Below, one piece after another: positions 1,867-31,167 of a DNA stretch of 32,306 nt. The translations under genes and the position numbers were made by a program. The stretch is from IMG/VR virus record IMGVR_UViG_2802429237_000004, positions 1 through 32,306 of that record; one strand, given 5' to 3'. Position 1 is the first letter of the stretch, and every line of letters starts with the position of its first letter. The DNA comes from a virus (taxonomy: Duplodnaviria > Heunggongvirae > Uroviricota > Caudoviricetes). The notes under the pieces were generated by a model. That model was not told the origin of the DNA. It ran no database searches and worked only from the letters and a program-made list of their open reading frames with translations.

Positions 1867-4800
1867 GCGTCGTATCCCCCCTGATCGCTGTAGTTACTCC
1901 TGGCTTTTGCCTTCAGCCTGCGTTCACGTTCATCAAGCTGGCGTGCCACCTCCCGCGCAATATCCTGCGCACTTTGTCCTGGCTGCGTCTGAATGATGAT
2001 CTGCGTCGGTGCCTCAATCCGTTGAACGAGCGGCACAGTGGCTGCGCGACTCACAATTGCTTCTCCACCTTTCGCGGGAAGTGCCAAAGGGTGCAACGGT
2101 GGAAGCTCTGCTGGCGCGGCAGCAACGCCCATCATTCCGGCAACAACGGCAGCCAGTGCAGCTGTATTTCTCCGGCTGGTCACATTTGCCGGGCCGTTAA
2201 CAATTTCCGGCCCGTTTTCACCGACGATGCCAAACTGCCCGCGCGGGATATACCCGCCGCTGTCATACATCCCCGCAAAGCCATATCCCCATGATGGAAA
2301 ACCACCCGATGGCATCATCACTTTACCGTCTGCATTCACCGTCGCAGGTTGCTGACGCGTCACGCTTTCCGGCAGTTTTGCCTTTGCGGCCTCTTTACTG
2401 ACAATGCCGAGCTTCTCCAGCAACCAGGAAACGCCGGATTTCAGGGAGTCCAGCGGATGCATGACCATATTCAGCCCTTCCGCCAGTGCCTCCCCGAATC
2501 GCCGCCCCATTGCCGCTGCGCTCTGCAGTTCGGCAGAGGTCGACTTAACGGGCGTCAGCAGATCAGTAAACCAGCCCCACAGCGCCTGCACTTTGTCGCC
2601 AATCCACTGGAACACGGGCTTAAGCGGTTCGAACGCTGCACTGATGGGACCTGCCGCCGCTTTGAATCCTTCCACCACGCCACCGAGAAATGCGGTGATG
2701 GGTTGCCAGTATTTCCAGACAACCAGCGCCACGCCCGCCAGTGCAGTAACCACAAGACCTATCGGACTGAGCAGAGCACCTAACAGACCAGATATGGCAT
2801 ACAGGGCAACGCGCAGCATCGCCAGCGGGCCGGATGCGAGCACACGCAGCACCGCGCCTGCGGCAGCCAGCCCACCGCGTAGTGCTGCCAGTGGATTCAT
2901 AAACATCACAGCAACAGCACGTAAACCGGATAATCCAGAACGCAAAAGTGCAACCGGCGCACCTGCTACAGTTTTCAGGACATTCCCCATCAGTGATACC
3001 GTGCGACGCAAAGACGACAACGGAGCAGTAAGTAAACCCGCTGCGTTGCCCGATGAAGCAAGCCCGCGTCGCAGCAGTGCCAGTGGTGCGCCAGCCAGCC
3101 AGGACAACGCGCTGCTGGTTCGAGTTACTGCTGCCGTAACGGAAGGTAACGTTTTGATACCCAGCACAGAGAATCCCAGACGGATGACTGCCAGCGGCCC
3201 CAGCACTGCAGCCAGCGCCACCGCTAAGGTGCCGAGGCCTACGGTAACCGCAGCCACCACAGCCGCTACTTTCATCAGTGTGCCTGTCAGTTCCGGGTTA
3301 GCTTCCACCCAGCGGCGCAACGCCCCCATGATGCTTTTCACCGTGTACAGAATATCCATCAGCGGCTGGCGCAGCGTTTCGCCCAGGCTGCTGAAGGTGT
3401 TCTGCGCTCCGGTTTTGACCAGCAACCACTGAGCAGAAAGTGAGTCTTTGTTGATGTCGGATTCTTTCTGCATGGAACCGAGCGCATCATTGCCCGCTGT
3501 CAGTTTTAGCTGGCGCTGCAGTTCCGGAAGGTTGTTTGCCAGTTTCGCCGCGTCATCACCAAACTCTTTACCAAACAACATGGTCATGGCAGACAGACGC
3601 TTGTCCTGCGGCAGTGCGTTCACCTTCTCCAGCACACGCTGGATAGTTCCCATCGCATCCTTCGTCATCTGCTTTTCAATCACTTCAGGATTGAGTTTCA
3701 GCAGATTCATCCCTTCAAAGAAACTCTTGCTTTGCATGGTGGCAATGGACAATTCACGCACCATCGCGTTTGCTGCACTGGCTGCAACCTCCGGCGCAGC
3801 GCCCAGTGTCAGAAAGGTGGAACCCAGTGCCGCCGCTTTACGATAATCCAGACGGTCAGCCACACCGCCCAGACGTTGCATCACATCAATGATGTCCGCC
3901 CCTTTCGACATGGCGTTATCATCCAGATAGTTCAGCGCATCACCGAGCTGTTCAATATTGCGGGTAGGGATTTTGTAGAGCTGGGCGATTTTCCCCAGAC
4001 TTTCTGACAGTTCATCCGCTGGCAGCTCAAAGGCTGTTGCCGCCTTTGCTGCCGTGCTGGCGAAGGCCAGCAGATCACGTTTCTGGTCTTCCCAGCTGTC
4101 GTCAGGGTTTGCGACGTTCATGCGCGCCCCACCTTCAACCAGTGCAGCGAAGTCCACCGCACCGTTTTCCATCGGCAGCTGTTCGCTGGCAGCCTTGATG
4201 GCATCCTGCATTTCATAAAAACGTGCAGTGCGGTTGCCATTATCGTCACGCAGACCATTGACCTGCTTTGCCACACCTTTCATGGCATCTTCCATGCTGG
4301 TATAGCTTTTTACTGCCGCCATCACTGGCGCACCCATTGCCAGCCCTGCAGCCGTGGTAGTGGCTCCGGCTCCTGCGATGCGATCGCGCACTTCAAGCCG
4401 TCTTGAGTATTGTTCTCTGGCAGCGTTCATCCGTGCCTGTTGTTCACCCAGACGTTTAAGTGCTTTTTGCTGGCCCTCCAGTGCCTGCCTTGTTTCTTCA
4501 GCATTTTTCTTAAGTTCTCGCTGGGCACTACTGAGTTGTCTGGTATCAATCCCTGATTCTTTAAGTGCCTGACGTTGTCTCTGGACCGCCCCCAACAAGC
4601 CGTTATAGGTCTGCTGAAGTTCCTGTACTCGTGTTTTGGCCTGACTGAATAACTTTGCCTGCGCGGCGGTTGGCCTGTTAGTGGCAGCAAATTGTGTGGC
4701 GAGTTTTGCCGCCTCTTCGCGGGCTGCGTTCAGGTTGTTGGCTGTTATGGCTAGTTGCGAGCGCGTCTTGCGAAATTCATCAATTCTGCCAGCCTGCTTA

Positions 4801-5948: not shown

Positions 5949-7121
5949 TTACGCGCTGACCTGGCTGGAGAAATTCACCAGGTACTGATCGGTGATGCGC
6001 TGACGCAGCATCAGGTTTTCAAGTGGCGGCACTGGCGTGTAGTCGTAGTCGATGGTGAGCTTCCCGGCTTTCAGCGTGTCTTTATCGTTCACCGACTCAT
6101 CCAGCCAGCAATCACCACCAATGAGATAGCCCTGACTGACCAGGCTACGCATTTTGGCGCGGATACCTTCGATAATGTCGCGCGCCAGCGACGGGTTCAG
6201 CGGTTTATCCACCGCCCACATGTGCGCTTCTGCCATCGTGTCCGTCAGCACCTGCGCCGTGCGGGTGTAGTTTTCGAAAGCAAAAAGCGGATCATCGCTC
6301 AGACAGCGGGAACCCCAGAAGCGGAAACCATCCTTGCGCACAAGCGTGGTGACGTCATTCTGGTTCAGCAGACCTGCATCGGTTGCCGGGTCCTGCAGAT
6401 CCCAGAACACATCAGCAGAAATTCCGGTGACACCGTTCACGCCCACGTTGGACAGGCTTTTGTGCCACCCGGTCTGCTCATCAATTTTGGCACGCAGACC
6501 AAGCGCACGAGCGGTGGCATATGCCGTTGCTTCGGCATTCAGCACCGTGTCCCAGCCAGTAAAGTCAGGCCAGATCAGCATTCCTTCGCGCTGGCTGAAG
6601 TTTTCACGGTAAGTGATCGCCTCCTGTACCGTCTTGCAGCCATACGCTGACAGGTAGGCAAACCCACGCAGGCTTTGCGCCACACTCAGCAACTCAGTCG
6701 CAACGGCTTTGTTATCGTGACCTGGCACGCCGAGAATGCGCGGTTTAACGCCGAGCTGTGTCTGGGCAGATAACAGGGCTTTCATGCCTGTTTTTTTACC
6801 TTCAGCGGTCACTGCGCCGATGATATTAGTCGTGGTTTCTTCTTCCGTTTCCCCCTGCGGCACACGCACAACAACGGTCACGGGTTTTGCCTGGTCAGCG
6901 ATGGCATCCAGCGAACGGGCCAGCGTGCCGGACTCACCCGCTTTACCGCTGGCGGTCAGTACATCAGTGATCAGCACGGGTTTATTAAGAGGAAACATTT
7001 TTGCATCGGCATCATCGCCCGTGCAGACCATACCCACGATGGCGGTGCTCACCGTGGTAATGGATCGGGTGCCTTCGTTGACTTCAACAACGCGCACCCC
7101 GTGGTGGTAATCCTGAGCCAT
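5949..7121 (-). CDS. FI: Contractile tail sheath protein FI
   Basis: 390-aa ORF heading the FI-FII-E-T-U-D operon; preceded by a TGT-N12-ACA late-promoter element. Confidence 0.9.
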
Positions 7122-15756: not shown

Positions 15757-16407
15757 TCAGCGGCTGTCATTGCGCAGTCTGCGCTCCAGCTGCTGTTTGT
15801 CTTTTTTCACGCCACAGCGGGGATCGAGCTGTAACGCATGGTTTAGATGATTAAGGGCGGAAGCCGGATTGCTTTCACTCAGGACTGCGCCAATCGCTTT
15901 ATGCAGACGCGCCCGTGACTGGTCCGGCATATCCAGACCGTCTGTCAGTTCCAGTGTCTGCAGTAACAGATCGGCATCAAAGCCGGTGGCGGCAAGCATT
16001 GCGCTCTGGGCTGCATCTGCCATTTCCTCTGCCAGCACGGTCTGCACGTTGCGGTTACCCAGCGGCATCACCCAGCCATGACGCAGGGCATGACGCCCGA
16101 TCTCCAGCGCCCCGGCATAATCTCCGGCATCAATGCGCCACAGCATCACGTACATCAGCACGTCATCCTGTTGAGCGCCTCCGGCAGCCAGGACACCCTC
16201 TGCCCAGGCGGCGTATTTCGGCAGCAGCTCCACCTTGATTTCCGCTTTTTTGACCGTGGACTGAACGCCCTTGAGACGGCAGCGGTCTTCCGCCAGTTGC
16301 AGCAGCATCAGGTCATAGCCCGACGCGTGGCGAACGCTGCCGCCCTCGCGGGCGGCCTGTTCAGCCTGAACGCGCAGGCGATGCTGCCGTGCGGGACTCA
16401 GGCTCAT
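15757..16407 (-). CDS. M: Terminase small (endonuclease) subunit M
   Basis: 216-aa ORF between major capsid N and L; P2 gpM position. Confidence 0.8.
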   Translation of the reverse strand: MSLSPARQHRLRVQAEQAAREGGSVRHASGYDLMLLQLAEDRCRLKGVQSTVKKAEIKVELLPKYAAWAEGVLAAGGAQQDDVLMYVMLWRIDAGDYAGALEIGRHALRHGWVMPLGNRNVQTVLAEEMADAAQSAMLAATGFDADLLLQTLELTDGLDMPDQSRARLHKAIGAVLSESNPASALNHLNHALQLDPRCGVKKDKQQLERRLRNDSR

Positions 16408-16410
16408 GGG

Positions 16411-17469
16411 TTACGCTCCGGCTTCTGCTGCAGCGGCGCTGAAATCGCCAATCTGGATGTTTTCCACCAGTGCGGCGCAGCGGTAGTCCTCAACCACATA
16501 GGCTTCGTTAACGGATTCAAAATTTTCAATCCGGTCACGTTTCGGGTTGTCGATAACTGAACGGCGGCGGGTGTCTTCCTGCCAGTAGATGGACAGGTTA
16601 TCCAGACGGGTGATCAGCAGCGCATTCGGCGGGAAGAACGGCGCACGGACGGCCTGCAGGCCCCCCATGCGTTTCTGGCTGATGATCATATCGGCAGCCA
16701 GTTTTTCACTGTTTTCCTGCTCTTTGTTGACCAGCGGGAAATACTTGTCAGACAGCAGTTCACGACCGCAAATCACCACCAGATCGTCATCGTCCTGGTA
16801 GACCACGTCGATAAGCTCATTGACCGCATCCATCACCACAGCGTCCAGGTTGGCATATTCGCCACCTTTACCGACTTTCACCGCGCCCGGTGTGGTTTCA
16901 CCGCCTGTGGTGGTGCTGCCCATGACGTGATCCGGTGCATCCTCGCGGATTTTCTGCAGCCAGCCTTTGTTCACATCCTGCAGCAGCGGGTTTTCACTAC
17001 GGTTGGAGGTTTTCGCACGCTTCACGCCGTTAAAGCCGATCATGATGCGGTCCAGTGCCTGACGTTTCACGATGGCGTCACGGATACGCACCTGGAAATC
17101 CTGAAACTTCGCCCACAGGTCCAGCTTCGCGTAGGTCAGCACCGTGTCAAAGTTGGTCTGCTCGCATTTATATTCCACATCGACCATCAGCGTCGGATCG
17201 ACAGGTTCACGCTCTTTCGCGGTGGTGTCAGTGGTTCCGGCAATGGTGCTGCCAACACCCAGCCCCAGCAGCTGACCGGACTGCTCAGTCACTGGCGTGA
17301 CGTTAATCAGCGTCAGGAAAGCGGCGGACTGCTGGATCTGGTCCTCCAGTGTCTGCTGCACAGACGGCTCCACAGTGAATTTGCTGGACAGTTCTTCAAC
17401 TGCCACACCGTTCAGACGCGCCAGCTGCTGCAGGTAAGCGTTAAAAGCAAAGCGGGTATTCTTCTTCAT
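16411..17469 (-). CDS. N: Major capsid protein N
   Basis: 352-aa ORF immediately after scaffold O; P2 gpN size and position. Confidence 0.9.
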   Translation of the reverse strand: MKKNTRFAFNAYLQQLARLNGVAVEELSSKFTVEPSVQQTLEDQIQQSAAFLTLINVTPVTEQSGQLLGLGVGSTIAGTTDTTAKEREPVDPTLMVDVEYKCEQTNFDTVLTYAKLDLWAKFQDFQVRIRDAIVKRQALDRIMIGFNGVKRAKTSNRSENPLLQDVNKGWLQKIREDAPDHVMGSTTTGGETTPGAVKVGKGGEYANLDAVVMDAVNELIDVVYQDDDDLVVICGRELLSDKYFPLVNKEQENSEKLAADMIISQKRMGGLQAVRAPFFPPNALLITRLDNLSIYWQEDTRRRSVIDNPKRDRIENFESVNEAYVVEDYRCAALVENIQIGDFSAAAAEAGA

Positions 17470-17485: not shown

Positions 17486-18319
17486 TCAGCAATTGGTCAG
17501 AGTGTCAGCGGGGGCGTTACCGCCTGTTGCACGCTGGCGGTAGTCCTGGCGGCTGTCTTCATGACTCAGCTTATCCACCAGTTCGTTAAAGGCGGCTTGT
17601 TGTGCCTGCAGGGCAGTCTCCATCTCAGACAGGCGTTCTTCCTGCTCAGACAGGGACTTTTCGGTGCGCGTGCTCAGGTTTTGCTGCTCAGTGGCGACCA
17701 GTTCCACGGCCTTATGCACATCAGAGAACCGGGCATCATCGGACTGCTCTTTTTTGGTGAACAGCGCCGTGACGCGGGCAAACAGGGACGGCTTGTCCTC
17801 TTGGATTTCTTCCAGTTCGATCACCGTTTCCTCTGCAGCGGTAAAAAGATTGGCGGGATTCTGCTTGCGGTTTGCCAGCGGGTTATGGGCTGCACTGGCG
17901 CTGAATGTCAGCATTTCCGTACCCAGACTGGCGGGATCATCAGTGGCAGCCAGGCCGACCAGGTAGGCTTTGCCCGTATCAGCAAACTTCGGGCTGACTT
18001 CCATAGAGGTGAATAATTTCTGGCCTTTTTTCACCAGCTCCACCAGAGATTCCGTTGGCTCAACGTCGGCATACAGCGCCATCTTGCCTGCCAGCGGACC
18101 TTCCGTGATTTCTTCAGCAAACAGCGCCGTCACCTTGCCGTAGCGGTTAAAGGTGCTGTCCGGCAGATAAGACTTGATGTGCTCAAGGTTAATCAGCGCG
18201 GTGTACACCGTCGGGTTGTAGCTGGCTGCCATCTGTTCCAGCCATTCACGCTGGATTTCGCGTCCGTCGGTGGTGGCACCTTCCACCCCGATGCGAAAAC
18301 GCTTTGCTTTCACTGTCAT
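17486..18319 (-). CDS. O: Capsid scaffolding protein O
   Basis: 277-aa ORF; N-terminal FRIGVEGATTDGREI and C-terminal ATGGNAPADTLTNC resemble P2 gpO as I recall it; divergent from P. Confidence 0.85.
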   Translation of the reverse strand: MTVKAKRFRIGVEGATTDGREIQREWLEQMAASYNPTVYTALINLEHIKSYLPDSTFNRYGKVTALFAEEITEGPLAGKMALYADVEPTESLVELVKKGQKLFTSMEVSPKFADTGKAYLVGLAATDDPASLGTEMLTFSASAAHNPLANRKQNPANLFTAAEETVIELEEIQEDKPSLFARVTALFTKKEQSDDARFSDVHKAVELVATEQQNLSTRTEKSLSEQEERLSEMETALQAQQAAFNELVDKLSHEDSRQDYRQRATGGNAPADTLTNC

Positions 18320-18461: not shown

Positions 18462-20228
18462 ATGAACACCACACTGACACCCGCAGATCTCGATCCCCGT
18501 CGGCAGGCCATGCTGCTGTACTTTCAGGGATACCGCGTCGCCCGCATTGCTGAAATGCTGGGCGAGAAAGTTGCAACCGTTCACAGCTGGAAAAAACGCG
18601 ACAAGTGGGGTGACTATGGGCCGCTGGATCAGATGCAGCTCACCACCGCCGCACGCTACTGCCAGCTCATTATGAAGGAGCACAAAGAAGGGAAAGATTT
18701 CAAAGAGATTGACCTGCTGGCGCGCCAGTCTGAGCGCCACGCGCGGATCGGCAAGTTTAACAATGGCGGCAACGAAGCTGACTTAAACCCTAACGTCGCC
18801 AACCGCAACAAAGGCCCGCGCCGTCAGCCGGAAAAGAATGTCTTCACCGATGAACAGATTGAGAAGCTGGAAGAAATCTTCCATTCCTCCATGTTCAACT
18901 ACCAGCGCCACTGGTGGGAAGCCGGAAAAACCAACCGCATCCGCAACCTGCTGAAGTCACGCCAGATCGGCGCGACCTTTTACTTTGCCCGTGAAGCCCT
19001 GATTGACGCCCTGCTTACCGGACGTAACCAGATTTTCCTTTCCGCCAGCAAGGCACAGGCCCACGTCTTTAAGCAGTACATCATCGACTTCGCCAAAGAA
19101 GTGGATGTGGAACTGAAAGGCGATCCGATGGTGCTTCCCAACGGGGCCACGCTTTACTTCCTCGGCACCAATGCCCGCACGGCCCAGAGTTACCACGGCA
19201 ACCTGTATCTGGATGAATATTTCTGGATACCGAAATTCCAGGAGCTGCGCAAAGTGGCTTCCGGTATGGCTATTCACAAAAAATGGCGACAGACCTATTT
19301 TTCCACGCCATCCAGTCTGACACACAGTGCTTATCCGTTCTGGTCCGGTGCGCTGTTCAACCGTGGGCGCAACAAAGCCGATAAGGTGGACATCGACCTG
19401 TCCCACAGCAATCTGGCCCCCGGCCTGCTGTGCGCAGACGGGCAATACCGCCAGATAGTCACCGTGGAAGATGCGGTGCGCGGCGGCTGCAACCTGTTCG
19501 ACCTTGACCAGTTGCGCATGGAGTACAGCCCGGACGAATACCAGAACCTGCTGATGTGCGAGTTCGTGGACGATCTCGCGTCCGTGTTCCCGCTCAGCGA
19601 GCTGCAGGCGTGCATGGTGGACAGCTGGGAAGTCTGGACCGACTTTCATGCACTGGCACTGCGCCCGTTTGGCTGGCGCGAAGTGTGGATCGGTTATGAC
19701 CCGGCGAAAGGTACGCAGAACGGCGACAGTGCCGGATGCGTGGTGGTGGCACCGCCAGCCGTGCCGGGCGGCAAGTTCCGCATTCTTGAGCGTCACCAGT
19801 GGCGCGGGATGGACTTTCGCGCCCAGGCTGACGCCATCAAAAAACTGACCGAACAGTACAACGTGACCTATATCGGCATCGACTCAACCGGCGTTGGTCA
19901 CGGGGTTTACGAGAACGTGAAAGCGTTTTTTCCTGCCGTCCGGGAGTTTGTCTACAACCCCAACGTTAAAAACGCCCTGGTACTCAAGGCCTACGACATT
20001 ATCAGCCACCGCCGTCTGGAGTTTGACGCCGGACACACCGACATAGCGCAGTCATTTATGGCAATCCGTCGCGCCACCACCGCCAGTGGCAACCGCCCGA
20101 CCTATGAAGCCAGCCGCAGCGAAGAAGCCAGCCACGCCGATCTGGCCTGGGCAACCATGCACGCACTGTTTAACGAACCGCTGCAGGGCGAGTCCGCCAA
20201 TACCAGCAATATTGTGGAGATTTTTTGA
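18462..20228 (+). CDS. P: Terminase large (ATPase) subunit P
   Basis: 588-aa ORF divergent from O and followed by portal Q with overlapping stop/start (TGATG); P2 gpP size and position. Confidence 0.9.
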   Translation: MNTTLTPADLDPRRQAMLLYFQGYRVARIAEMLGEKVATVHSWKKRDKWGDYGPLDQMQLTTAARYCQLIMKEHKEGKDFKEIDLLARQSERHARIGKFNNGGNEADLNPNVANRNKGPRRQPEKNVFTDEQIEKLEEIFHSSMFNYQRHWWEAGKTNRIRNLLKSRQIGATFYFAREALIDALLTGRNQIFLSASKAQAHVFKQYIIDFAKEVDVELKGDPMVLPNGATLYFLGTNARTAQSYHGNLYLDEYFWIPKFQELRKVASGMAIHKKWRQTYFSTPSSLTHSAYPFWSGALFNRGRNKADKVDIDLSHSNLAPGLLCADGQYRQIVTVEDAVRGGCNLFDLDQLRMEYSPDEYQNLLMCEFVDDLASVFPLSELQACMVDSWEVWTDFHALALRPFGWREVWIGYDPAKGTQNGDSAGCVVVAPPAVPGGKFRILERHQWRGMDFRAQADAIKKLTEQYNVTYIGIDSTGVGHGVYENVKAFFPAVREFVYNPNVKNALVLKAYDIISHRRLEFDAGHTDIAQSFMAIRRATTASGNRPTYEASRSEEASHADLAWATMHALFNEPLQGESANTSNIVEIF

Positions 20229-21265
20229 TGGGAAAGAGTAAAAAGAACCGCGCTGCGGCGACGAAACAGATCCAGCTTAAAAGCCAGACTACAGCCGAAG
20301 CATTCAGCTTCGGCGATCCCGTTCCTGTTCTGGACCGCCGAGAACTGCTGGACTATGTGGAATGCGTACAGATGGACCGTTGGTATGAGCCGCCCGTCAG
20401 CTTTGACGGACTGGCGCGCACCTTCCGCGCTGCCGTGCATCACAGTTCCCCGATTGCAGTAAAGTGCAACATTCTGACCAGTACCTATATCCCTCATCCG
20501 CTGCTCAGCCAGCAGGCTTTTTCGCGTTTTGTGCAGGACTATCTGGTATTTGGTAACGCCTACCTGGAGAAACGCACGAACCGCTTCGGTGAAGTTATCG
20601 CCCTTGAGCCTGCGCTGGCAAAATACACCCGACGCGGATTAGACCTGGATACCTACTGGTTTGTGCAATACGGCATGACTACGCAGCCGTATCAGTTCAC
20701 GAAAGGCAGCATTTTTCATCTGATGGAACCGGACATCAACCAGGAGATCTACGGCCTGCCCGGTTATCTTTCTGCCATTCCGTCAGCCCTGCTCAACGAG
20801 TCCGCCACGCTGTTCCGCCGGAAGTATTACATTAACGGTAGTCATGCAGGCTTCATCATGTACATGACCGATGCCGCGCAGAACCAGGAAGACGTGAACA
20901 ACCTCCGCAACGCAATGAAAAGCGCCAAAGGACCGGGTAACTTCCGCAACCTGTTTATGTACTCGCCTAACGGGAAAAAGGACGGACTTCAGATTATCCC
21001 GTTGTCAGAAGTGGCGGCGAAGGATGAGTTTCTAAACATCAAGAACGTGAGCCGGGATGACATGATGGCGGCGCATCGTGTGCCACCGCAAATGATGGGG
21101 ATTATGCCTAATAATGTTGGGGGATTTGGGGATGTAGAGAAAGCTAGTAATGTATTTGTGCGAAATGAATTACTACCATTGCAAAAGCGAATCACAGAAT
21201 TTAATGAGTGGATAGGAAACAATGTAGTTCAATTTGAGCCTTATACTTTCGAGATTAGAGAATAA
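20228..21265 (+). CDS. Q: Portal protein Q
   Basis: ORF-track start at 20225 is a TTG; the ATG at 20228 (MGKSKKNR) overlaps the P stop; about 345 aa, P2 gpQ size and position; the last 150 nt or so are conspicuously AT-rich. Confidence 0.9.
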   Translation: MGKSKKNRAAATKQIQLKSQTTAEAFSFGDPVPVLDRRELLDYVECVQMDRWYEPPVSFDGLARTFRAAVHHSSPIAVKCNILTSTYIPHPLLSQQAFSRFVQDYLVFGNAYLEKRTNRFGEVIALEPALAKYTRRGLDLDTYWFVQYGMTTQPYQFTKGSIFHLMEPDINQEIYGLPGYLSAIPSALLNESATLFRRKYYINGSHAGFIMYMTDAAQNQEDVNNLRNAMKSAKGPGNFRNLFMYSPNGKKDGLQIIPLSEVAAKDEFLNIKNVSRDDMMAAHRVPPQMMGIMPNNVGGFGDVEKASNVFVRNELLPLQKRITEFNEWIGNNVVQFEPYTFEIRE

Positions 21266-21289
21266 AATATACTATTAAAACAAGGTAAT

Positions 21290-21308
21290 GGCCGATTTAA
21301 TATCGGCC
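21290..21308. terminator. Bidirectional hairpin between convergent Q and the DUF4062-like cargo gene
   Basis: ggccgat-ttaat-atcggcc perfect 7-bp stem in the 49-nt gap between the two stop codons, with T-rich flanks on both sides. Confidence 0.5.
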
Positions 21309-21314
21309 TTTAAA

Positions 21315-22346
21315 CTATCTTTTTATTGCTCGTAGAGTAGTCATTAAATTCTCCCCATAAGGGGTTAAGGTCCAATATGTACCCTTGTCTTTTACACTTC
21401 TATTTCTTTCACTTTGGACCATAAGCCCTAGAGCTCGGAATTGTACTTTGATTGTCTGGACATCAGAACTATCCATACGAATAAACTTTATATGCATATT
21501 TTTAAAATCATCATCCGACCTCAACCCTGCCTCAACAATTTCATAGATGGAAGCGTTGATCAACGTTTTTAATCTATCATCGGAAATTTCATCAATCATA
21601 TAGGGAGAAATATAGGAAAATAATGAATTCCAACTTATCTGAGAGGTCCACTCATACTCTGAACCATCAGATGTCCACTCTGTAGGAGAAGCATGGAAGC
21701 TACATTTAAAAGTAAATAAATCGTCTCCTTGTGCAAGATCCTCAGTCCCTTTCGGTGCAGTTGTGGTATTCTTACTTAATTGATTTTCAAGTTCCTCAAT
21801 AGTCCTCTTCAACCCAAGAATTTCTTTTGCTGAACTCTCACTAGTAACTAAATCTCCACGAACCCATCCTACAGCAGGATGATCTTTAATAAGCCTAATC
21901 AAACTTCTACTGACTTGGCTTCCTAAGTCCGCAGGAGTTTCCCAGAATCGGCAAAGTTTCTTTTTAACAAGCTCTTCAAATGCTTCTAGCTTTTCTTTTC
22001 CTTGAGGAGATGGCTCACATCGCTGGGATGGTAAAAGACCTTTATTTTTGTGCAAAAAACCAATTACTGGCTTTCCTGATTCAACAGCGTAACGATACTC
22101 CATCTCAGTATAACTTATCCCATCAGGCCCTAAGGAACCGTAACGCCCCGCAAGGATTACAATGTAATAATCACTATCATCAATTATTTTCTTTATTAAG
22201 CTCCATTGATCACTATTAGTAGCAGGAAACAACTCCATACCAGCAGGTATACAATCCAGCTCTAAAAGAGCCTGCATGACCTCTTGACGTTCAGTTTCCA
22301 GGTCTGAGTATGTTGAACTAACAAAAACTTGATACCGCTTGTCCAA
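21315..22346 (-). CDS. AT-rich cargo gene: protein with DUF4062-like N-terminal module and unknown C-terminal domain (candidate defence/abortive-infection effector)
   Basis: 343-aa ORF; N-terminus YQVFVSSTYSDLETERQEVMQALLELDCIPAGMELFPA...DYYIVILAGRYGS matches my recollection of the DUF4062 signature; in-frame start is TTG preceded by GAGGGA at good spacing (no upstream in-frame ATG; the next ATG would cut the conserved motif); flanked by terminator hairpins. Confidence 0.6.
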   Translation of the reverse strand: MDKRYQVFVSSTYSDLETERQEVMQALLELDCIPAGMELFPATNSDQWSLIKKIIDDSDYYIVILAGRYGSLGPDGISYTEMEYRYAVESGKPVIGFLHKNKGLLPSQRCEPSPQGKEKLEAFEELVKKKLCRFWETPADLGSQVSRSLIRLIKDHPAVGWVRGDLVTSESSAKEILGLKRTIEELENQLSKNTTTAPKGTEDLAQGDDLFTFKCSFHASPTEWTSDGSEYEWTSQISWNSLFSYISPYMIDEISDDRLKTLINASIYEIVEAGLRSDDDFKNMHIKFIRMDSSDVQTIKVQFRALGLMVQSERNRSVKDKGTYWTLTPYGENLMTTLRAIKR

Positions 22347-22414
22347 ACCGCATCCCTCATGATTATTACTTTAAACAATGTAATATTTTTTACTCCATAT
22401 TTAATTTGCGCGCA

Positions 22415-22433
22415 ATCGTATCCCCGCCACGCC
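22415..22433 (-). other. cos-like cohesive-end site
   Basis: Minus-strand GGCGTGGCGGGGATACGAT; the first 13 nt match the 19-nt cohesive end of P2/186 as I recall it (GGCG[A/T]GGCGGGGAAAGCA[C/T]); lies between the SOS operon terminator and the cargo gene. Confidence 0.45.
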
Positions 22434-22478
22434 TGCCCGCTTTATGTAGTGGTTTTCATGCACCTGCATAATCTACGC

Positions 22479-22502
22479 AAAAGCCCGCCAGTTCTGGCGG
22501 GC
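22479..22502 (-). terminator. Rho-independent terminator ending the SOS (tum/dinI-like) operon
   Basis: gcccgcc-agttct-ggcgggc stem-loop followed on the minus strand by TTTT, about 135 nt downstream of the dinI-like stop. Confidence 0.55.
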
Positions 22503-22637
22503 CTTAGCAAAAACGATCCTCAAACGATCATGCGATCTCATGCGGCATAGACATGCACTACAGAGTTAACGCCTCGCAAGGGCTCGTTGTTCAACCTTGC
22601 TGACGCCAGAAGCAAGTTCAGACGCCAGCAACGTTTC

Positions 22638-22871
22638 TTAATGCAGCCAGCTGTCGTCTTCCCACACCTTCTGCATAATTTTCATCACTTGTTTTCTTTC
22701 TTCGTCCAGTTGCAGTCCGGTTAGTTCCACACCGTTAGAGCTACCTTTGCGAATGCGAATTACCGTTTTGGGATACAGGGGGCGCAGATTGCGGTAAAGC
22801 TCGGATTCAAGGGCGTCCAGGGTAGACTGGCTAATCTTCTGCTCTTTATCGATCATTATTTCAATGCGCAT
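22638..22871 (-). CDS. DinI-family protein (second gene of SOS operon)
   Basis: Start set at the internal MRIEIMIDKEQ, preceded by GAGGTG Shine-Dalgarno; 77 aa; N-terminus and C-terminal ...VWEDDSWLH resemble E. coli DinI and the C-terminal half of 186 Tum as I recall them. Confidence 0.6.
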   Translation of the reverse strand: MRIEIMIDKEQKISQSTLDALESELYRNLRPLYPKTVIRIRKGSSNGVELTGLQLDEERKQVMKIMQKVWEDDSWLH

Positions 22872-22881
22872 AAAAGTCACC

Positions 22882-23070
22882 TCAGCTGATGACATCCATT
22901 GAGCGGTTGTATTCGTGGGTTCTGATTTTTGCCATGAGTTCATCAGTCAATTCAGAAACCCACTGCAGAGCCAGCCCCTTCTCTTCATCACTACACTCAC
23001 TAGCCGCTACAAGCTTAAGAAAAAAATCAATGCGCTGGAGCTTCAAAGACTCCAAAAAATAGTCCTGCAT
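22882..23070 (-). CDS. Small SOS-operon protein (possibly the N-terminal part of a Tum-like antirepressor)
   Basis: Start set at the internal MQDYFLESL, which has a perfect AGGAGGAAAG Shine-Dalgarno directly upstream and lies 30-60 nt downstream of LexA boxes; the ORF-track start at 23172 would place the LexA boxes inside the coding sequence. Confidence 0.5.
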   Translation of the reverse strand: MQDYFLESLKLQRIDFFLKLVAASECSDEEKGLALQWVSELTDELMAKIRTHEYNRSMDVIS

Positions 23071-23098
23071 CTTTCCTCCTATGACACCACACGCAACA

Positions 23099-23129
23099 CT
23101 GTATGTATAACCACTGTTTATATTTACAG
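23099..23129. promoter_or_regulatory. Tandem LexA (SOS) boxes at the promoter of the tum/dinI-like operon
   Basis: Perfect CTG-N10-CAG with AT-rich core (ctgtttatatttacag, about 23114-23129) abutting an imperfect copy (ctgtatgtataaccac, about 23099-23114); LexA consensus is CTGTATATATATACAG. Confidence 0.6.
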
Positions 23130-23223
23130 CATATAATAATCTTACTGATGTAAAACGTTTTTTTACGTTCATCAGCCTGATATGCCTGGTATTATTAAGA
23201 GCACGAATTGTTAACCCGCGTAA

Positions 23224-25638
23224 TTAATACAGGTTCCGCCACTGATCATCTTCCTGCAAACGCTGGTTCCGATAGAAGATACGCAGGCCTGCTCCTGACG
23301 GAATACTGCCTCCGCGAAGGAGTAAATCGACCTCTTTCTCGCTGCCATCAAATCCTCTGGACTTCAGCTCATACACGAGCTGCAGTCGCTGATGGTCTGT
23401 AATTCGCTGTTTGTAGTCTTTACGCCGTTTCGGTTTCACCAGGCGTAACCTTGCTGCCAGTTCCCGGCGCTCTTTTTTGCTCATACTGTGCAGGTAATCG
23501 TGCAACTCCTTGTCATCCATGCTGGTAATGTCCGTTCTGGGGTCCCCATCAGCTGATTTATCTTTCTCCTGTTGGTTCAAATTTTCAGCAAGGGGACAGT
23601 TATTGCCACGAGTCCAAGGGGCGCAAGCGCCCTGGTCGGCTGCCGCCTCCTGAACGTCAACGGCCTTACGAACCATTTTCCACTTCACCGCATGAGTGCA
23701 GATCTTGCCCTCTGCAATGGGTGACCAGATGCCATAAATACGAATACCGTGATCGCCATATGCGGTCGGTTCTTCGTTGATTTCATAAGCAGTTCTGATG
23801 AGGTGATATTTGCGGGGAACCAGTACGCCGCCCTGCTTCATGATGTAGGTGGCAAAACAACCAACATCAGCAGCAGCCAGGATTGCATCAAGGCGCGGGT
23901 TATCCAGTACCGGCGCACCTGCTTTTTTGTCCCCCTGTTGCCTTGCCGCCTGACCAGCCAGCAATCGCAGTTCACGGTAAGCCTGACGCCCCGGAATGCC
24001 AAAGAAGCGGAATTGCTGAACACGATGCAGAGACGCCCAGGCATTAACGTATTCAGCGTTATCACGCAGGGATTTACCCGTTTCCTTGCTGATCTCGCCA
24101 GCCAGACCACGCCCGTCAATGTTCTTACTGATGTATTTCGCGATGTAGCTTGTTGGCGTACCTTTGCGCGGGTTTATCAGCTCAGACTTAAAGCGTGGTC
24201 CCGTGTTATTACCCAGCTCCTCGCGGTCTTCACGAATGGCAAACTTACGCAACAAAGCAGTAATGGTGCGGCGATCTTTTTTGCGCATAAAACACAACAG
24301 GTGCCAGTGAACTGTACCGTCATGATGCGGCTCAGCCACCCGCACGCCATACCAGCGCAATCCGGCTTTGTGCATCGCCTTACGAAATGCAGCAAACATG
24401 CCGACCAGATAATCACTGCTTTGTCTTACCGTCGTATTTGTCCAGGTCGGGTTGGGCCTGCCGTTATTTAGCGTGGAATGGAAACGTGACGGACAGGTGA
24501 TGGTGTAGAAAACGGCGCAGTCACCGCGCATTTCCGCGATAAGCTCCAGACCTTTAACACAGGCCATCATCTCATTGCGGCGATGCGCAGGGTTGCTGCT
24601 GCTGGCGTTTACCACATCCTCCATGTCCAGCATGTCGCCGTCTTCGTTCACCAGTTCATGAGAACGGAAAAACTCCAGCGACTTACGGCGCTGCTCACGT
24701 TTATGCATCACGGCTTCATAGCTGACATAGGGAGATGCTTTTTTGCTGACCAGGCAAACAGCACGCAACTGCTCTTCCCGCCATTCGCAACGCATCTTCC
24801 ATAATTTCCGGTACCACCAATCGGCGCACAACATACGCGCCAGCGAACCCGGAATGAGTTCATAGGGCACGGGTTTACGGCGGTTTCTTTTCCGGCGGAG
24901 TTGCTCAAACGCAGGCGGTATGACATCCAGTCGCAGGGTTTCTGCTGCCACCTTTTCCCATGTCTTGCGGATTTCTTCTGGCTTAACGTCATCGGTGGCA
25001 TACAAATCGCCACAAGCTGCATCAAGGCACATGCTCATATGCGCAGCAACAAGGGTGGACAGGCGTTTCACCTGATCCTGACTCATTTCAGGCAGGATCA
25101 GCAGGCCGTCCAGCCCTTCATGGCTTGCCATAAAGCGAAAAGAAGTGGATAGCTGACTGTCGCGTACATGCTCCAGCCGTTCCAGACATGGCTTAATCGT
25201 CTCACGCAAATAGCGGGAATAAGCCTTTGGCCTGCCAAGGCTGCTGAAGTATTCAATACGTTGCATCAGCGGCCTGCTGATATGGGAAGGCTGGGCGTTA
25301 ACGTCTGCCAGAATGACCATGTCCGGGTTAAAACGCTGCTGCTCATGCGCCAACTTTGCCCGGCTAATGAGCTTATCCTGCTCCATTTCGCGCTGGACAG
25401 GATCACGGGATTCATTAAAGAAATAACGCTCCCAAACCTGATCACTCAGTGCCTCGCGGCGCAGTTGTTCCTGCTCGTTATCGGCAGCGTACAGAGTGAT
25501 CAGGTTTGAAAGCGCAGAAACCGGCGCAACTTCCGCCGGGTCCAGATAAGGGTTAATAGCCTTTTTCGGGCTGTTCCATGAGAATGCTGCGGCGGCCTCG
25601 TTAAAGCCGCTGCAGTTGTTCATATCAGCATGGCTCAT
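23224..25638 (-). CDS. A: Rolling-circle replication initiator A
   Basis: 804-aa ORF with an HUH-type motif ([10 protein letters not shown]) and a Y-x-x-K-Y pair (SYIAKYISK); last gene of the early operon, start overlapping the Dam stop (ATGA). Confidence 0.8.
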
Positions 25639-29228: not shown

Positions 29229-30167
29229 ATGTCAACTCAAAAAAACACATTTCGCCATGTTAGCGAGAGTCTAAAAACTTCAATAATGCAAAACCGTGGG
29301 GGACAGAAAGTAATTGAGCGTATACTTGTTGCGTATGGTTTTACTTCGCGGCAAGCATTTTGCAATCATCTGGGTATCTCACAAAGCACGATGGCCAACA
29401 GGTATGCTCGTGACACATTTCCTGCTGACTGGGTGATAATTTGCAGTATAGAGACCGGCGCATCTATCGACTGGTTGGCATCGGGAATCAGCTGTGAATC
29501 ATCCTCAGTTTTATTAAATGATGAACGTTTAGCCCATACCAAATCTGATGACCTGGATAGAACTAATTCAATAGCCCAAAAGTTCCCAATCGAGACCAGC
29601 ATAAATCCTAATAAAGGAGGGAAGGCGGCAATTGATCGCTTAGTCGCAGCCTACGGCTTTAGCACCCGACAAGCCCTAGCAAACCATTTGCAGGTTTCAA
29701 AAAGCACTGTAGCAAACAGGTACTTACGAGACACGTTTCCTAGCGACTGGATCATTCAATGCGCTCTTGAAACAGGAACTTCATTACTCTGGCTCACAAA
29801 CGGCAATGGCCCCAAATTTATCGATAATTCCAGCTCTGTAGCCCAACTTAAACACCAAACAATCATTGACGGTAAATTACATGATGAAGGCTACTTAGCA
29901 TTTGACAAGACGCTTATACCTTCCGGATTGAAAAAACCTATTGGAGTTACCGCAGAAGGAAAAACCTTTATTGCAGATACAGAATATGATGATGTTTCAG
30001 ATGGTAGTTGGTTGATTGAGATTGAAGGTAAAGTAAGTTTAAGAAAATTAACAAGAATTCCAGTTGGAAAAGTAAAAATCACATCAGATACAACTGATTT
30101 TGTTTGTAAGCTTGAAGACATTACAACCATCGCAAAATGTTGTTGCGTTTTTTCAAAGGAAATTTAA
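29229..30167 (+). CDS. cI: CI-like immunity repressor with two tandem 186 CI-type N-terminal HTH domains
   Basis: 312-aa ORF; two consecutive segments (ERILVAYGFTSRQAFCNHLGISQSTMANRYARDTFPADWVIICSIETGASIDWLASG and DRLVAAYGFSTRQALANHLQVSKSTVANRYLRDTFPSDWIIQCALETGTSLLWLTNG) each resemble the 186 CI N-terminal DNA-binding domain; AT-rich C-terminal third; start codon choice uncertain (weak Shine-Dalgarno). Confidence 0.7.
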   Translation: MSTQKNTFRHVSESLKTSIMQNRGGQKVIERILVAYGFTSRQAFCNHLGISQSTMANRYARDTFPADWVIICSIETGASIDWLASGISCESSSVLLNDERLAHTKSDDLDRTNSIAQKFPIETSINPNKGGKAAIDRLVAAYGFSTRQALANHLQVSKSTVANRYLRDTFPSDWIIQCALETGTSLLWLTNGNGPKFIDNSSSVAQLKHQTIIDGKLHDEGYLAFDKTLIPSGLKKPIGVTAEGKTFIADTEYDDVSDGSWLIEIEGKVSLRKLTRIPVGKVKITSDTTDFVCKLEDITTIAKCCCVFSKEI

Positions 30168-30177
30168 AGGAACATAC

Positions 30178-31167
30178 ATGAATTCTGAAAATAAAAAAAA
30201 TGAAAACAACGATTATGTTGAAAAAGTTAATTGCGAATGGAAAGATCTTTATAATATTTTAAATGAAAATCTGCATAAATTTAATGAAAATGAACGCGCC
30301 TACTTAGTCGACTTATTAAAAAAAGGTGAACTTGATAAATTCAGAGAATACTACTGGAAATTAGCCCAGCAAGAAAAAATGAACTACAGCGATAAAGCTG
30401 GAGATATTTTTATTAATGAAAACAATAAGATAGATGAATTAATAAAAGAACAAAAACATCTTCGAGAGATAATGCGATCATATACCAAACGTTTATTGGA
30501 GGCTGAAGAGTCCAAAGCTACGTTACATCTTCGGAATGAGAATTTAGAAAAACTAAATTCTGAAAAAGAAGCAATTATTGAGCAAGCCGTATCTAGAATA
30601 AAGCAACTTGAAGCATCTAACAGCGAATTACAAAGCCGAGTACAACAAGAAAGGATTGATGAGAAAATACCAGGATATGTCGATAGCGTTAAAAGTGAAC
30701 TAAGTTCAGATGACTTATATTTCATTAAAATGTCGCAAGTATGGGCTTTTACTGGCTGCATTTTCGGGCTACTTGCTGTATGTGCATCATTTTATACACT
30801 CTACGCCACAATTGACTTCAACAATGTTAAAGGCTTTGAGCTATTTTATTTTTTCACACGTGGTTTAATTGGTATTTCCATTCTTTCTTGGCTAGCATAT
30901 ATTTGCCTTGGCAACTCTAAAAAATATACCCATGAATCAATTTTGAGAAAAGATAGAAGACATGCACTAATGTTTGGGCAAGTATTCCTGCAAATTTATG
31001 GTTCCACGTCAACAAAAGAAGATGCTGTGTTAGTCTTTAAAGACTGGAATATGTCTGGTAACTCTGCATTTTCTGACAAAACAGAACTCCCTCCGGGAAT
31101 CCAATCTTTATGGGATTCAACCAAAGAAAAACTAAAGCCAAGTACCGCTGAAAAAGCACAGGAGTGA
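30178..31167 (+). CDS. AT-rich cargo gene: coiled-coil protein with two C-terminal TM helices
   Basis: Start set at the ATG with AAGGA Shine-Dalgarno (MNSENKKNENN...); about 330 aa; a roughly 200-aa Glu/Lys/Leu/Asn-rich heptad region, then two hydrophobic helices (VWAFTGCIFGLLAVCASFYTLYATI, LFYFFTRGLIGISILSWLAYICLG) and a 65-aa tail; very AT-rich; followed by its own terminator. Confidence 0.6.
   Translation: MNSENKKNENNDYVEKVNCEWKDLYNILNENLHKFNENERAYLVDLLKKGELDKFREYYWKLAQQEKMNYSDKAGDIFINENNKIDELIKEQKHLREIMRSYTKRLLEAEESKATLHLRNENLEKLNSEKEAIIEQAVSRIKQLEASNSELQSRVQQERIDEKIPGYVDSVKSELSSDDLYFIKMSQVWAFTGCIFGLLAVCASFYTLYATIDFNNVKGFELFYFFTRGLIGISILSWLAYICLGNSKKYTHESILRKDRRHALMFGQVFLQIYGSTSTKEDAVLVFKDWNMSGNSAFSDKTELPPGIQSLWDSTKEKLKPSTAEKAQE

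Follow-up and report, generated by a model that had tools for sequence, protein, structure and literature searches.

A probable P2-family cos site and a DUF4062 cargo gene between cos and the portal gene of a Fels-2-like prophage

The window analyzed in this work, a stretch of 32,306 nucleotides that makes up the IMG/VR virus record IMGVR_UViG_2802429237_000004, is a P2/Fels-2-like prophage in which the packaging genes and gpA are full length. The terminase large subunit, gpP (18462-20228), and the portal protein, Q (20225-21265, Pfam Phage_portal), are encoded on the plus strand, and the minus strand carries the genes for the scaffold (17486-18319), the capsid (16411-17469), the small terminase, gpM (15757-16407), and the replication protein, gpA (23224-25638). 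Read along the minus strand, which follows the P2 map, the order is gpA, a small ORF, a DinI/Tum-like gene, a terminator, the putative cos site, a cargo gene, and then the convergent genes Q and P. The site is located between the gpA/early-side operon and Q, and the cognate terminase genes are in the same element, as expected for the P2 family. The DinI/Tum-like gene (22638-22943, minus strand; Pfam DinI, E 1.3e-22, residues 38-100) comes last in the early-side operon that precedes cos, and its true start is probably internal, since its relatives, annotated as DinI-like, are 77 aa long. As called, this ORF overlaps the one at 22882-23172 (minus strand), and the corresponding genes of relatives are 189 nt and 234 nt long; judging from these homologues, the genes actually present probably encode a protein of ~62 aa (phrog_698) and a DinI-like one of 77 aa. 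This two-gene arrangement is closer to PSP3, with its split tumA/tumB, than to 186, in which tum is fused. Close to the immunity end of the prophage, the plus strand at 29229-31167 carries a 312-aa ORF with three matched stretches to the repressor phrog_4 and, overlapping its end, an ORF of 355 aa (phrog_2628, function not assigned).

The putative cos site is a 19-mer at 22415-22433 that reads GGCGTGGCGGGGATACGAT on the minus strand and ATCGTATCCCCGCCACGCC on the plus strand, and that has the form GGCG[A/T]GGCGGGG plus 7 nt of the P2-family cohesive ends. A degenerate pattern covering P2, 186 and Fels-2 has a single match in the 32.3-kb window, at this position, where shuffled sequences lead to an expectation of 0.01, and a search with the 186 19-mer allowing up to three mismatches also finds only 22415-22433 (0 expected). 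When compared with the ends annotated in GenBank, the 19-mer is identical at 16 of 19 positions to that of 186 and PSP3 (GGCGTGGCGGGGAAAGCAT), with positions 1-13 exact, and at 14 of 19 to that of P2 and P4 (GGCGAGGCGGGGAAAGCAC), with 12 identities in the first 13; therefore, the proposal in an earlier note on this DNA that the first 13 nt match P2/186 stands for 186 (13/13) and fails by one position for P2. The identity rises to 18/19 with the sequence GGCGTGGCGGGGATACGAG of SEN8, Fels-2 and Cartapus, and the exact 19-mer followed by TGCGCGC is also present in prophages of Escherichia coli EC20-72C-1 and Scandinavium lactucae. By analogy with the annotation of P2 and 186, the nicks are predicted at 22434|22433 on the minus strand and at 22415|22414 on the plus strand.

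The sequences that surround the 19-mer were compared with the circular cos junctions of P2, 186, PSP3 and P4, which were rebuilt from the ends of the records and aligned with the minus strand of the window. A shared block, GCATGAGATCGCATG, is present approximately 110 nt upstream of the 19-mer in register with the four junctions; the blocks TGCAGGTGCATGAAAACC...AAAGCGGGCA abut the 19-mer upstream, and TGCGCGC abuts it downstream. The right-arm cos core (22434-22469, minus strand; ATGCAGGTGCATGAAAACCACTACATAAAGCGGGCA), defined from the junction alignments with P2, 186, PSP3, P4, Fels-2 and SEN8, shows a column conservation of 0.82-0.96, and together with the 19-mer and TGCGCGC it forms the core of roughly 55 bp that is common to P2, P4 and 186. 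Within this core the motifs TGCATnAAAACC...AAGCGGGC[A/G] precede the 19-mer and YGCGCGC follows it, all of them in register, and the "55-bp core" of Ziermann and Calendar (1990), as this work is cited in PMC5694545 and PMC2231350, matches the 29 + 19 + 7 nt around the predicted nicks. In total, about 150 bp around the 19-mer align block by block with known cos regions, and in the comparison with Fels-2 and SEN8 the conserved blocks are likewise complete and in register. The alignment with the cos sequences of P2, 186 and P4 that had been proposed as a check of the site thus places the junction blocks in register, in addition to the 16/19 and 14/19 identities to 186 and P2/P4.

To describe how far this conservation extends, 64 cos regions, i.e. 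the window, 60 species-level prophage loci, P2, 186 and P4, were anchored on the 19-mer. Conservation is one-sided; it is high from approximately −125 to +7 and falls to background from approximately +8. On the portal side, the conserved region ends with the left-arm flank TGCGCGC (+1 to +7; 22408-22414, minus strand), beyond which lies the variable cassette, and in the form YGCGCGC this flank is conserved at 80% or more across the 64 regions. On the gpA/DinI side, the conserved ~125 bp comprise GCATG repeats, the operon terminator and the blocks TGCATGAAAACC...AAAGCGGGCA. The most distal block (22526-22557, minus strand; TGCATGTCTATGCCGCATGAGATCGCATGATC) includes three GCATG-type repeats and is conserved at −124 to −93 in the 64 regions, including P2, 186 and P4; two further TGCA/GCATG motifs adjoin AAAACC in the conserved right arm, which gives five motifs of this type between 22434 and 22557. 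From its repeated motifs, the block at 22526-22557 is a candidate for the region bound by the small terminase gpM. The terminator is an intrinsic hairpin (22479-22505, minus strand; GGCCCGCCAGAACTGGCGGGC followed by TTTT) that closes the DinI/early-side operon 45 bp before cos, and its RNA folds with −25.7 kcal/mol (z = −3.99); its elements CCCGCCAG..CTGGCGGGCTTTT are conserved across the cos regions and its position matches that of the annotated t95b terminator of 186. Another terminator-like element, the hairpin CCGCTTTATGTAGTGG plus a T-run in the cos core (22437-22452, plus strand), was discarded given that its fold is no better than that of shuffled sequences (z = −0.68). A scan of 21000-23400 with Rfam gave no credible match. 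In P2, the transcription start of old is located ~150 bp from cos, just outside the conserved right-arm block.

With the Eganvirus phages 186 and PSP3 the site of the window has in common nucleotides 1-13, position 15 and the last two bases AT followed by TGCGCGC, as well as the right-arm blocks GCAT...GCATG, TGCAnnTGCATnAAAACC and AAAG[C/T]GGGCA and the placement of cos downstream of the DinI/tum operon terminator; in contrast, positions 14, 16 and 17 differ (TACG in the window, AAGC in 186 and PSP3), and the 176 bp of GC-rich non-coding DNA that in 186 separate cos from the portal gene, together with the tW terminator, are replaced in the window by 1149 bp of low-GC cargo. For Fels-2, SEN8 and Cartapus (Felsduovirus, Elveevirus) the right arm is approximately 90-94% identical to that of the window over ~150 bp, and the three phages also carry cargo between cos and the portal gene, although its content differs; in the 19-mer and its flank, the window departs from this clade only at base 19 and the base after it, where it has T,T, like 186, and these phages have G,C. 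P2 and P4 share with the window the layout of the ~55-bp core. The gop/beta/cII defense locus of P4 follows CGCGCGC directly and shares with the cargo of the window its side of cos and its distance from it, whereas P2 has an empty cos-to-Q interval and carries its own cargo, old and tin, ~150 bp from cos on the opposite side. The P2 genes old and tin also read away from cos.

Two readings that would deprive the site of a role in packaging were weighed against these data. Given its short length, the motif could be a G-rich 19-mer that occurs by chance and has no relation to packaging; this is hardly credible, since shuffled sequences lead to an expectation of 0-0.01 matches, the position is the syntenic one, and the alignment of ~150 bp of the surroundings with known cos regions refutes it. 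It could also be a decayed cos, a relic in a defective prophage that is no longer used for packaging. The 19-mer has three mismatches to the experimentally defined sequence of 186, and some related E. coli prophages are degraded, for instance that of strain F1005, with truncated tape-measure and terminase-region genes. Nevertheless, the three apparent mismatches are the consensus of the Fels-2 clade in the 64 regions (GGCGTGGCGGGGaTACGAG), the exact 19-mer and its flank recur in unrelated hosts, and there is no truncation of the conserved flanking blocks or of the packaging genes, so that we consider a relic very improbable. We conclude that 22415-22433 is the real cos of an apparently intact P2/Fels-2-like prophage, with a probability of about 0.9 for this assignment made by sequence comparison; the identification of the site as cos in the earlier note is thereby supported by the conserved blocks of the P2-family cos region, which are all present and in register. 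A point against it is that positions 14, 16 and 17 of the 19-mer deviate from the experimentally defined ends of 186 and P2.

The annotations of the closest phages have the same origin. The GenBank record of SEN8 starts exactly at GGCGTGGCGGGGATACGAG, annotated as "putative cos site", and this site was assigned by homology during annotation, not by end mapping (PMC5427200); the cos annotation of Cartapus was also made by homology. A search for experimentally mapped ends of phages with the ...GGGGATACGAK variant of cos found none. As a proxy for virion ends, contigs ending at cos were sought in IMG/VR with the exact cos 18-mer, and the matches listed are all internal to contigs, mostly prophages in isolate genomes. 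One contig, IMGVR_UViG_3300011853_000021, carries two copies of the 18-mer in opposite orientation and 3.2 kb apart, at 3448-3465 (minus strand) and 6704-6721 (plus strand), which could be due to the junction of a P2-like and a P4-like element or to an artefact of assembly.

The stop codon of Q ends at 21265 and cos starts at 22415, so that the interval between them is 1149 bp long, in agreement with the ~1.15 kb given in the earlier note. The corresponding interval measures 176 bp in 186 and 167 bp in P2, where cos is at 1-19 and the Q stop at 187; the ~250 bp given for P2 in the earlier note is somewhat high. In the BLAST matches of the cos region, which comprise 91 phage records and prophages from 1273 out of 5426 complete E. 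coli genomes, the homology toward Q breaks at 22400-22408, 8-15 bp beyond the 19-mer. The interval was surveyed in 80 species-representative loci with a Q homologue (L014-L093), and cos could be located in 62 of them. The distance from the Q stop to cos is below 300 bp, the state of P2 and 186, in ten of these loci, between 300 and 600 bp in one, and at least 600 bp in the remaining 51, in which it spans 600-3500 bp with differing ORF content; the median distance is 1.6 kb. In the window, the interval has a GC content of 0.38 and Q of 0.51, which marks the cassette as compositionally foreign, and nearly all of the cargo-bearing loci show 0.32-0.48 for the interval and ~0.50-0.58 for Q. The largest ORF points from cos to Q, convergent with Q, in 49 of the 51 cargo-bearing loci, as it does in the window.

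The occupants of this slot are diverse: Fels-2 carries a 565-aa ORF, SEN8 a hypothetical protein and an HNH endonuclease, Cartapus a DUF4145 protein, and the prophages of E. coli EC20-72C-1 and F1005 a DUF262 plus HEPN pair and another DUF4062 protein, respectively. Variable genes are thus found at a fixed position, between conserved cos and Q flanks, in syntenic prophages, which is what defines a hotspot. The exchanged DNA extends into the portal gene. Over the last ~140-150 nt of Q of the window (from ~21110-21130) the GC content drops from 0.53 to 0.33 and the identity to the nearest Q genes from ~0.9 to 0.6-0.7, so that, by composition, the last ~45 codons of Q belong to the swapped low-GC cassette. 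Among the 51 cargo-bearing loci, the GC content is 0.556 for the Q body and 0.413 for its last 120 nt, with a drop larger than 0.08 in 42 loci; in the 11 loci that do not carry a cassette of at least 600 bp the values are 0.575 and 0.570, and only one shows such a drop. The difference between 42/51 and 1/11 places a recombination boundary inside the portal gene, and from the pattern across loci the exchanged module consists of the 3' end of Q, the terminator and the cargo, located between the Q body and the cos core. This fits with the exchange of modules by recombination between these two conserved anchors. Given that conservation on the portal side stops at +7, the cos-to-Q DNA can be replaced freely and the slot tolerates any insert.

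A cargo gene between cos and Q is the usual arrangement of P2-like phages and has already been described; the structural reading in the earlier note was right, with cos at 22415-22433, the cargo at 21315-22346 and the Q stop at 21265, and the arrangement is not novel. It had been presented as a departure from P2, but the slot is occupied in 51 of the 62 loci and is a published hotspot, so that the empty state of P2 and 186 is the one found in a minority. The position from cosL to gpQ was called a hotspot by Askora et al. (2017; PMC5694545). In the account given there, Dodd and Egan (1996) found the retrons Ec67 and Ec86 in a 186-like prophage, in place of the DNA from cos to a terminator, and ctx of phiCTX was located by Nakayama (1999) between cos and the gpQ equivalent. 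As far as these accounts go, the retrons and ctx resemble the case of the window in that a 186/P2-like prophage has foreign DNA in place of the stretch from cos to the terminator or portal gene, and they differ from it in the cargo, which in the window is a DUF4062 NADase homologue. Rousset et al. (2022; PMC9122126) described the cos-adjacent region from gpA to gpQ as a defense hotspot on the basis of 18,150 E. coli loci, and a 2026 survey restates it (PMC13586616).

The cargo gene (21315-22346, minus strand) reads from cos to Q and encodes a protein of 343 aa with an N-terminal DUF4062/NIR NADase domain and a C-terminal auxiliary domain. The DUF4062-like assignment made for it in the earlier note was borne out by Pfam, which matches DUF4062 at residues 6-87 with an E value of 6.9e-29. 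The protein matches phrog_15411 over its full length (E 1.5e-114), and residues 1-342 align with residues 2-323 of the 326 of KpSwz (PDB 10wc_A; E 2.8e-69), so that the auxiliary domain is covered as well as DUF4062; the Swarozyc system of KpSwz is represented by the PDB entries 10wc, 11cq and 11cv. In the ungapped N-terminal alignment, SYTE of the cargo is placed on SFTE of KpSwz, and the S-[YF]-T-E motif is kept with its catalytic glutamate, E81 in the window and chain residue 82 in KpSwz; this residue would be E97 in the numbering of the paper, allowing for the 15-residue offset of the 16-C construct. KpSwz (Swarozyc) is a TIR-like NADase that is activated by binding of the phage portal and causes abortive infection (bioRxiv 10.64898/2026.05.01.722283). 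From this homology, we infer that the cargo is a Swarozyc homologue of the portal-activated DUF4062 NADase type of defense, and that it may have the corresponding activity. Vulcan and Evangelion are related single-gene DUF4062 systems. The five Swarozyc homologues tested in the preprint are located in bacterial defense islands, and prophages are not mentioned in it (bioRxiv 10.64898/2026.05.01.722283); in contrast, the copy of the window is in a P2-like prophage and adjoins the phage's own portal gene. A homologue of a portal-sensing type of NADase is thus found directly beside Q (20225-21265) of the prophage that carries it. PADLOC-DB 2023 gave no match for the cargo; this library is older than the papers on DUF4062 defense, and it was the search against PDB sequences that gave the identity.

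Between cos and the start of the cargo gene there is an AT-rich leader (22347-22407, minus strand) in which GAGGGA, 8 nt ahead of the TTG start codon (22346), is the Shine-Dalgarno sequence. A scan of 21200-23300 for sigma-70 promoters gave 0 sites, and in the 68-nt leader read by eye the best promoter-like site matches 7 of 12 positions. The related DUF4062 cassette present in the same slot of E. coli F1005 (NZ_OY754353.1, positions 3067-3162 of locus L012) has a near-consensus CTGACA-17-TATAAT promoter ~10-45 bp from cos, and its leader is unrelated to that of the window. Read-through from the DinI operon was considered as a source of the cargo transcript, and it is unlikely given the strong terminator at 22479-22505. 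At the other end, the convergent stop codons of Q and the cargo gene are separated by a GGCCGAT-n5-ATCGGCC hairpin (21290-21308) that folds with −13.2 kcal/mol on the plus strand and −15.1 kcal/mol on the minus strand (z ~−3.5 on both), and that is a probable bidirectional terminator.

Taking into account the sequence identity, the conservation pattern, the position of the site, the intact packaging genes and the variability of the cassette observed here, the organization of the locus could be explained as follows. By analogy with P2 and 186, the terminase encoded in the window (gpM, small subunit; gpP, large subunit) would recognize a one-sided cos signal that runs from ~125 bp before the 19-mer, on the gpA/DinI side, to 7 bp beyond it, and its staggered nicks at 22415-22433 would leave 5' overhangs of 19 nt. 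The portal-side DNA past +7 would be replaceable and would constitute a slot for cargo, which in this prophage is filled by a low-GC cassette of 1.15 kb. The last ~45 codons of Q are part of this cassette, which encodes an NADase of the Swarozyc type, presumably active in defense.

The earlier note also suggested that, if the site is the true cos, the cargo is the first gene injected and expressed on infection; the gene would be next to the left cohesive end, and this end would be the one that enters the cell first. The predicted end is only 69 nt from the start codon of the cargo gene, which is oriented away from this end, 49 of the 51 slot cassettes show the same orientation of the largest ORF, and the promoter of the F1005 DUF4062 cassette, 10-45 bp from cos, would stay intact on linear DNA. 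In lambda, the side bound by the terminase is packaged first. By analogy with lambda, recognition on the right arm, which is one-sided, would leave the left, cargo-bearing end as the last to enter the capsid and the first to leave it. Chattoraj and Inman reportedly mapped in 1974 the tail-proximal DNA end in P2, 186 and P4. However, the papers that cite their work do not state the polarity of P2-type ejection, and a strict last-in-first-out order has been questioned even for lambda (PMC10287942). Moreover, no sigma-70-like promoter was detected in the 68-nt leader in the scan of 21200-23300, the operon upstream ends in a strong terminator (22479-22505), and the host ligase seals the cohesive ends after entry (PMC7617512). 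The hotspot genes old and tin of P2 give immunity when they are expressed in the cell (PMC9122126), which points to a benefit of the hotspot cargo in lysogens. For these reasons it is improbable that the cargo is the first gene delivered and expressed, and we rather expect it to be a prophage-borne defense gene with its benefit during lysogeny.

The orientation bias also has simpler explanations, such as the avoidance of transcription through cos and of antisense transcription of the early operon, and the sharing of a terminator with Q (the hairpin at 21290-21308). A more elaborate and equally improbable idea is that the cassettes point away from cos (49/51) and start within ~70-130 nt of the end as a result of selection for expression from the leading end, before or independently of circularization, and that the co-swapped ~45 C-terminal codons of Q are tuned to the cassette, for instance to avoid that the portal sensor triggers itself. 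If expression from the leading end were true, a newly infected cell would be armed at once, in this case with a portal-sensing NADase; the simpler alternatives are the transcriptional insulation of cos and, for the end of Q, a recombination boundary inside this gene.

Under the preferred reading, in which 22415-22433 is a functional cos and the cargo a defense gene of the prophage, this site would define the ends of the virion chromosome, and the DUF4062 gene is part of the cos-adjacent defense hotspot well known in P2-like phages, where, as in P4, it occupies the portal side. For annotation purposes, it may be recorded as a Swarozyc homologue carried by a P2-like prophage, in a cassette with boundaries at ~21120 and ~22407. 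The feature is real, correctly located, ordinary and known in kind, and leaves the current understanding of these phages unchanged; the one-sided conservation of cos offers a simple reason for the tolerance of this slot to any insert.
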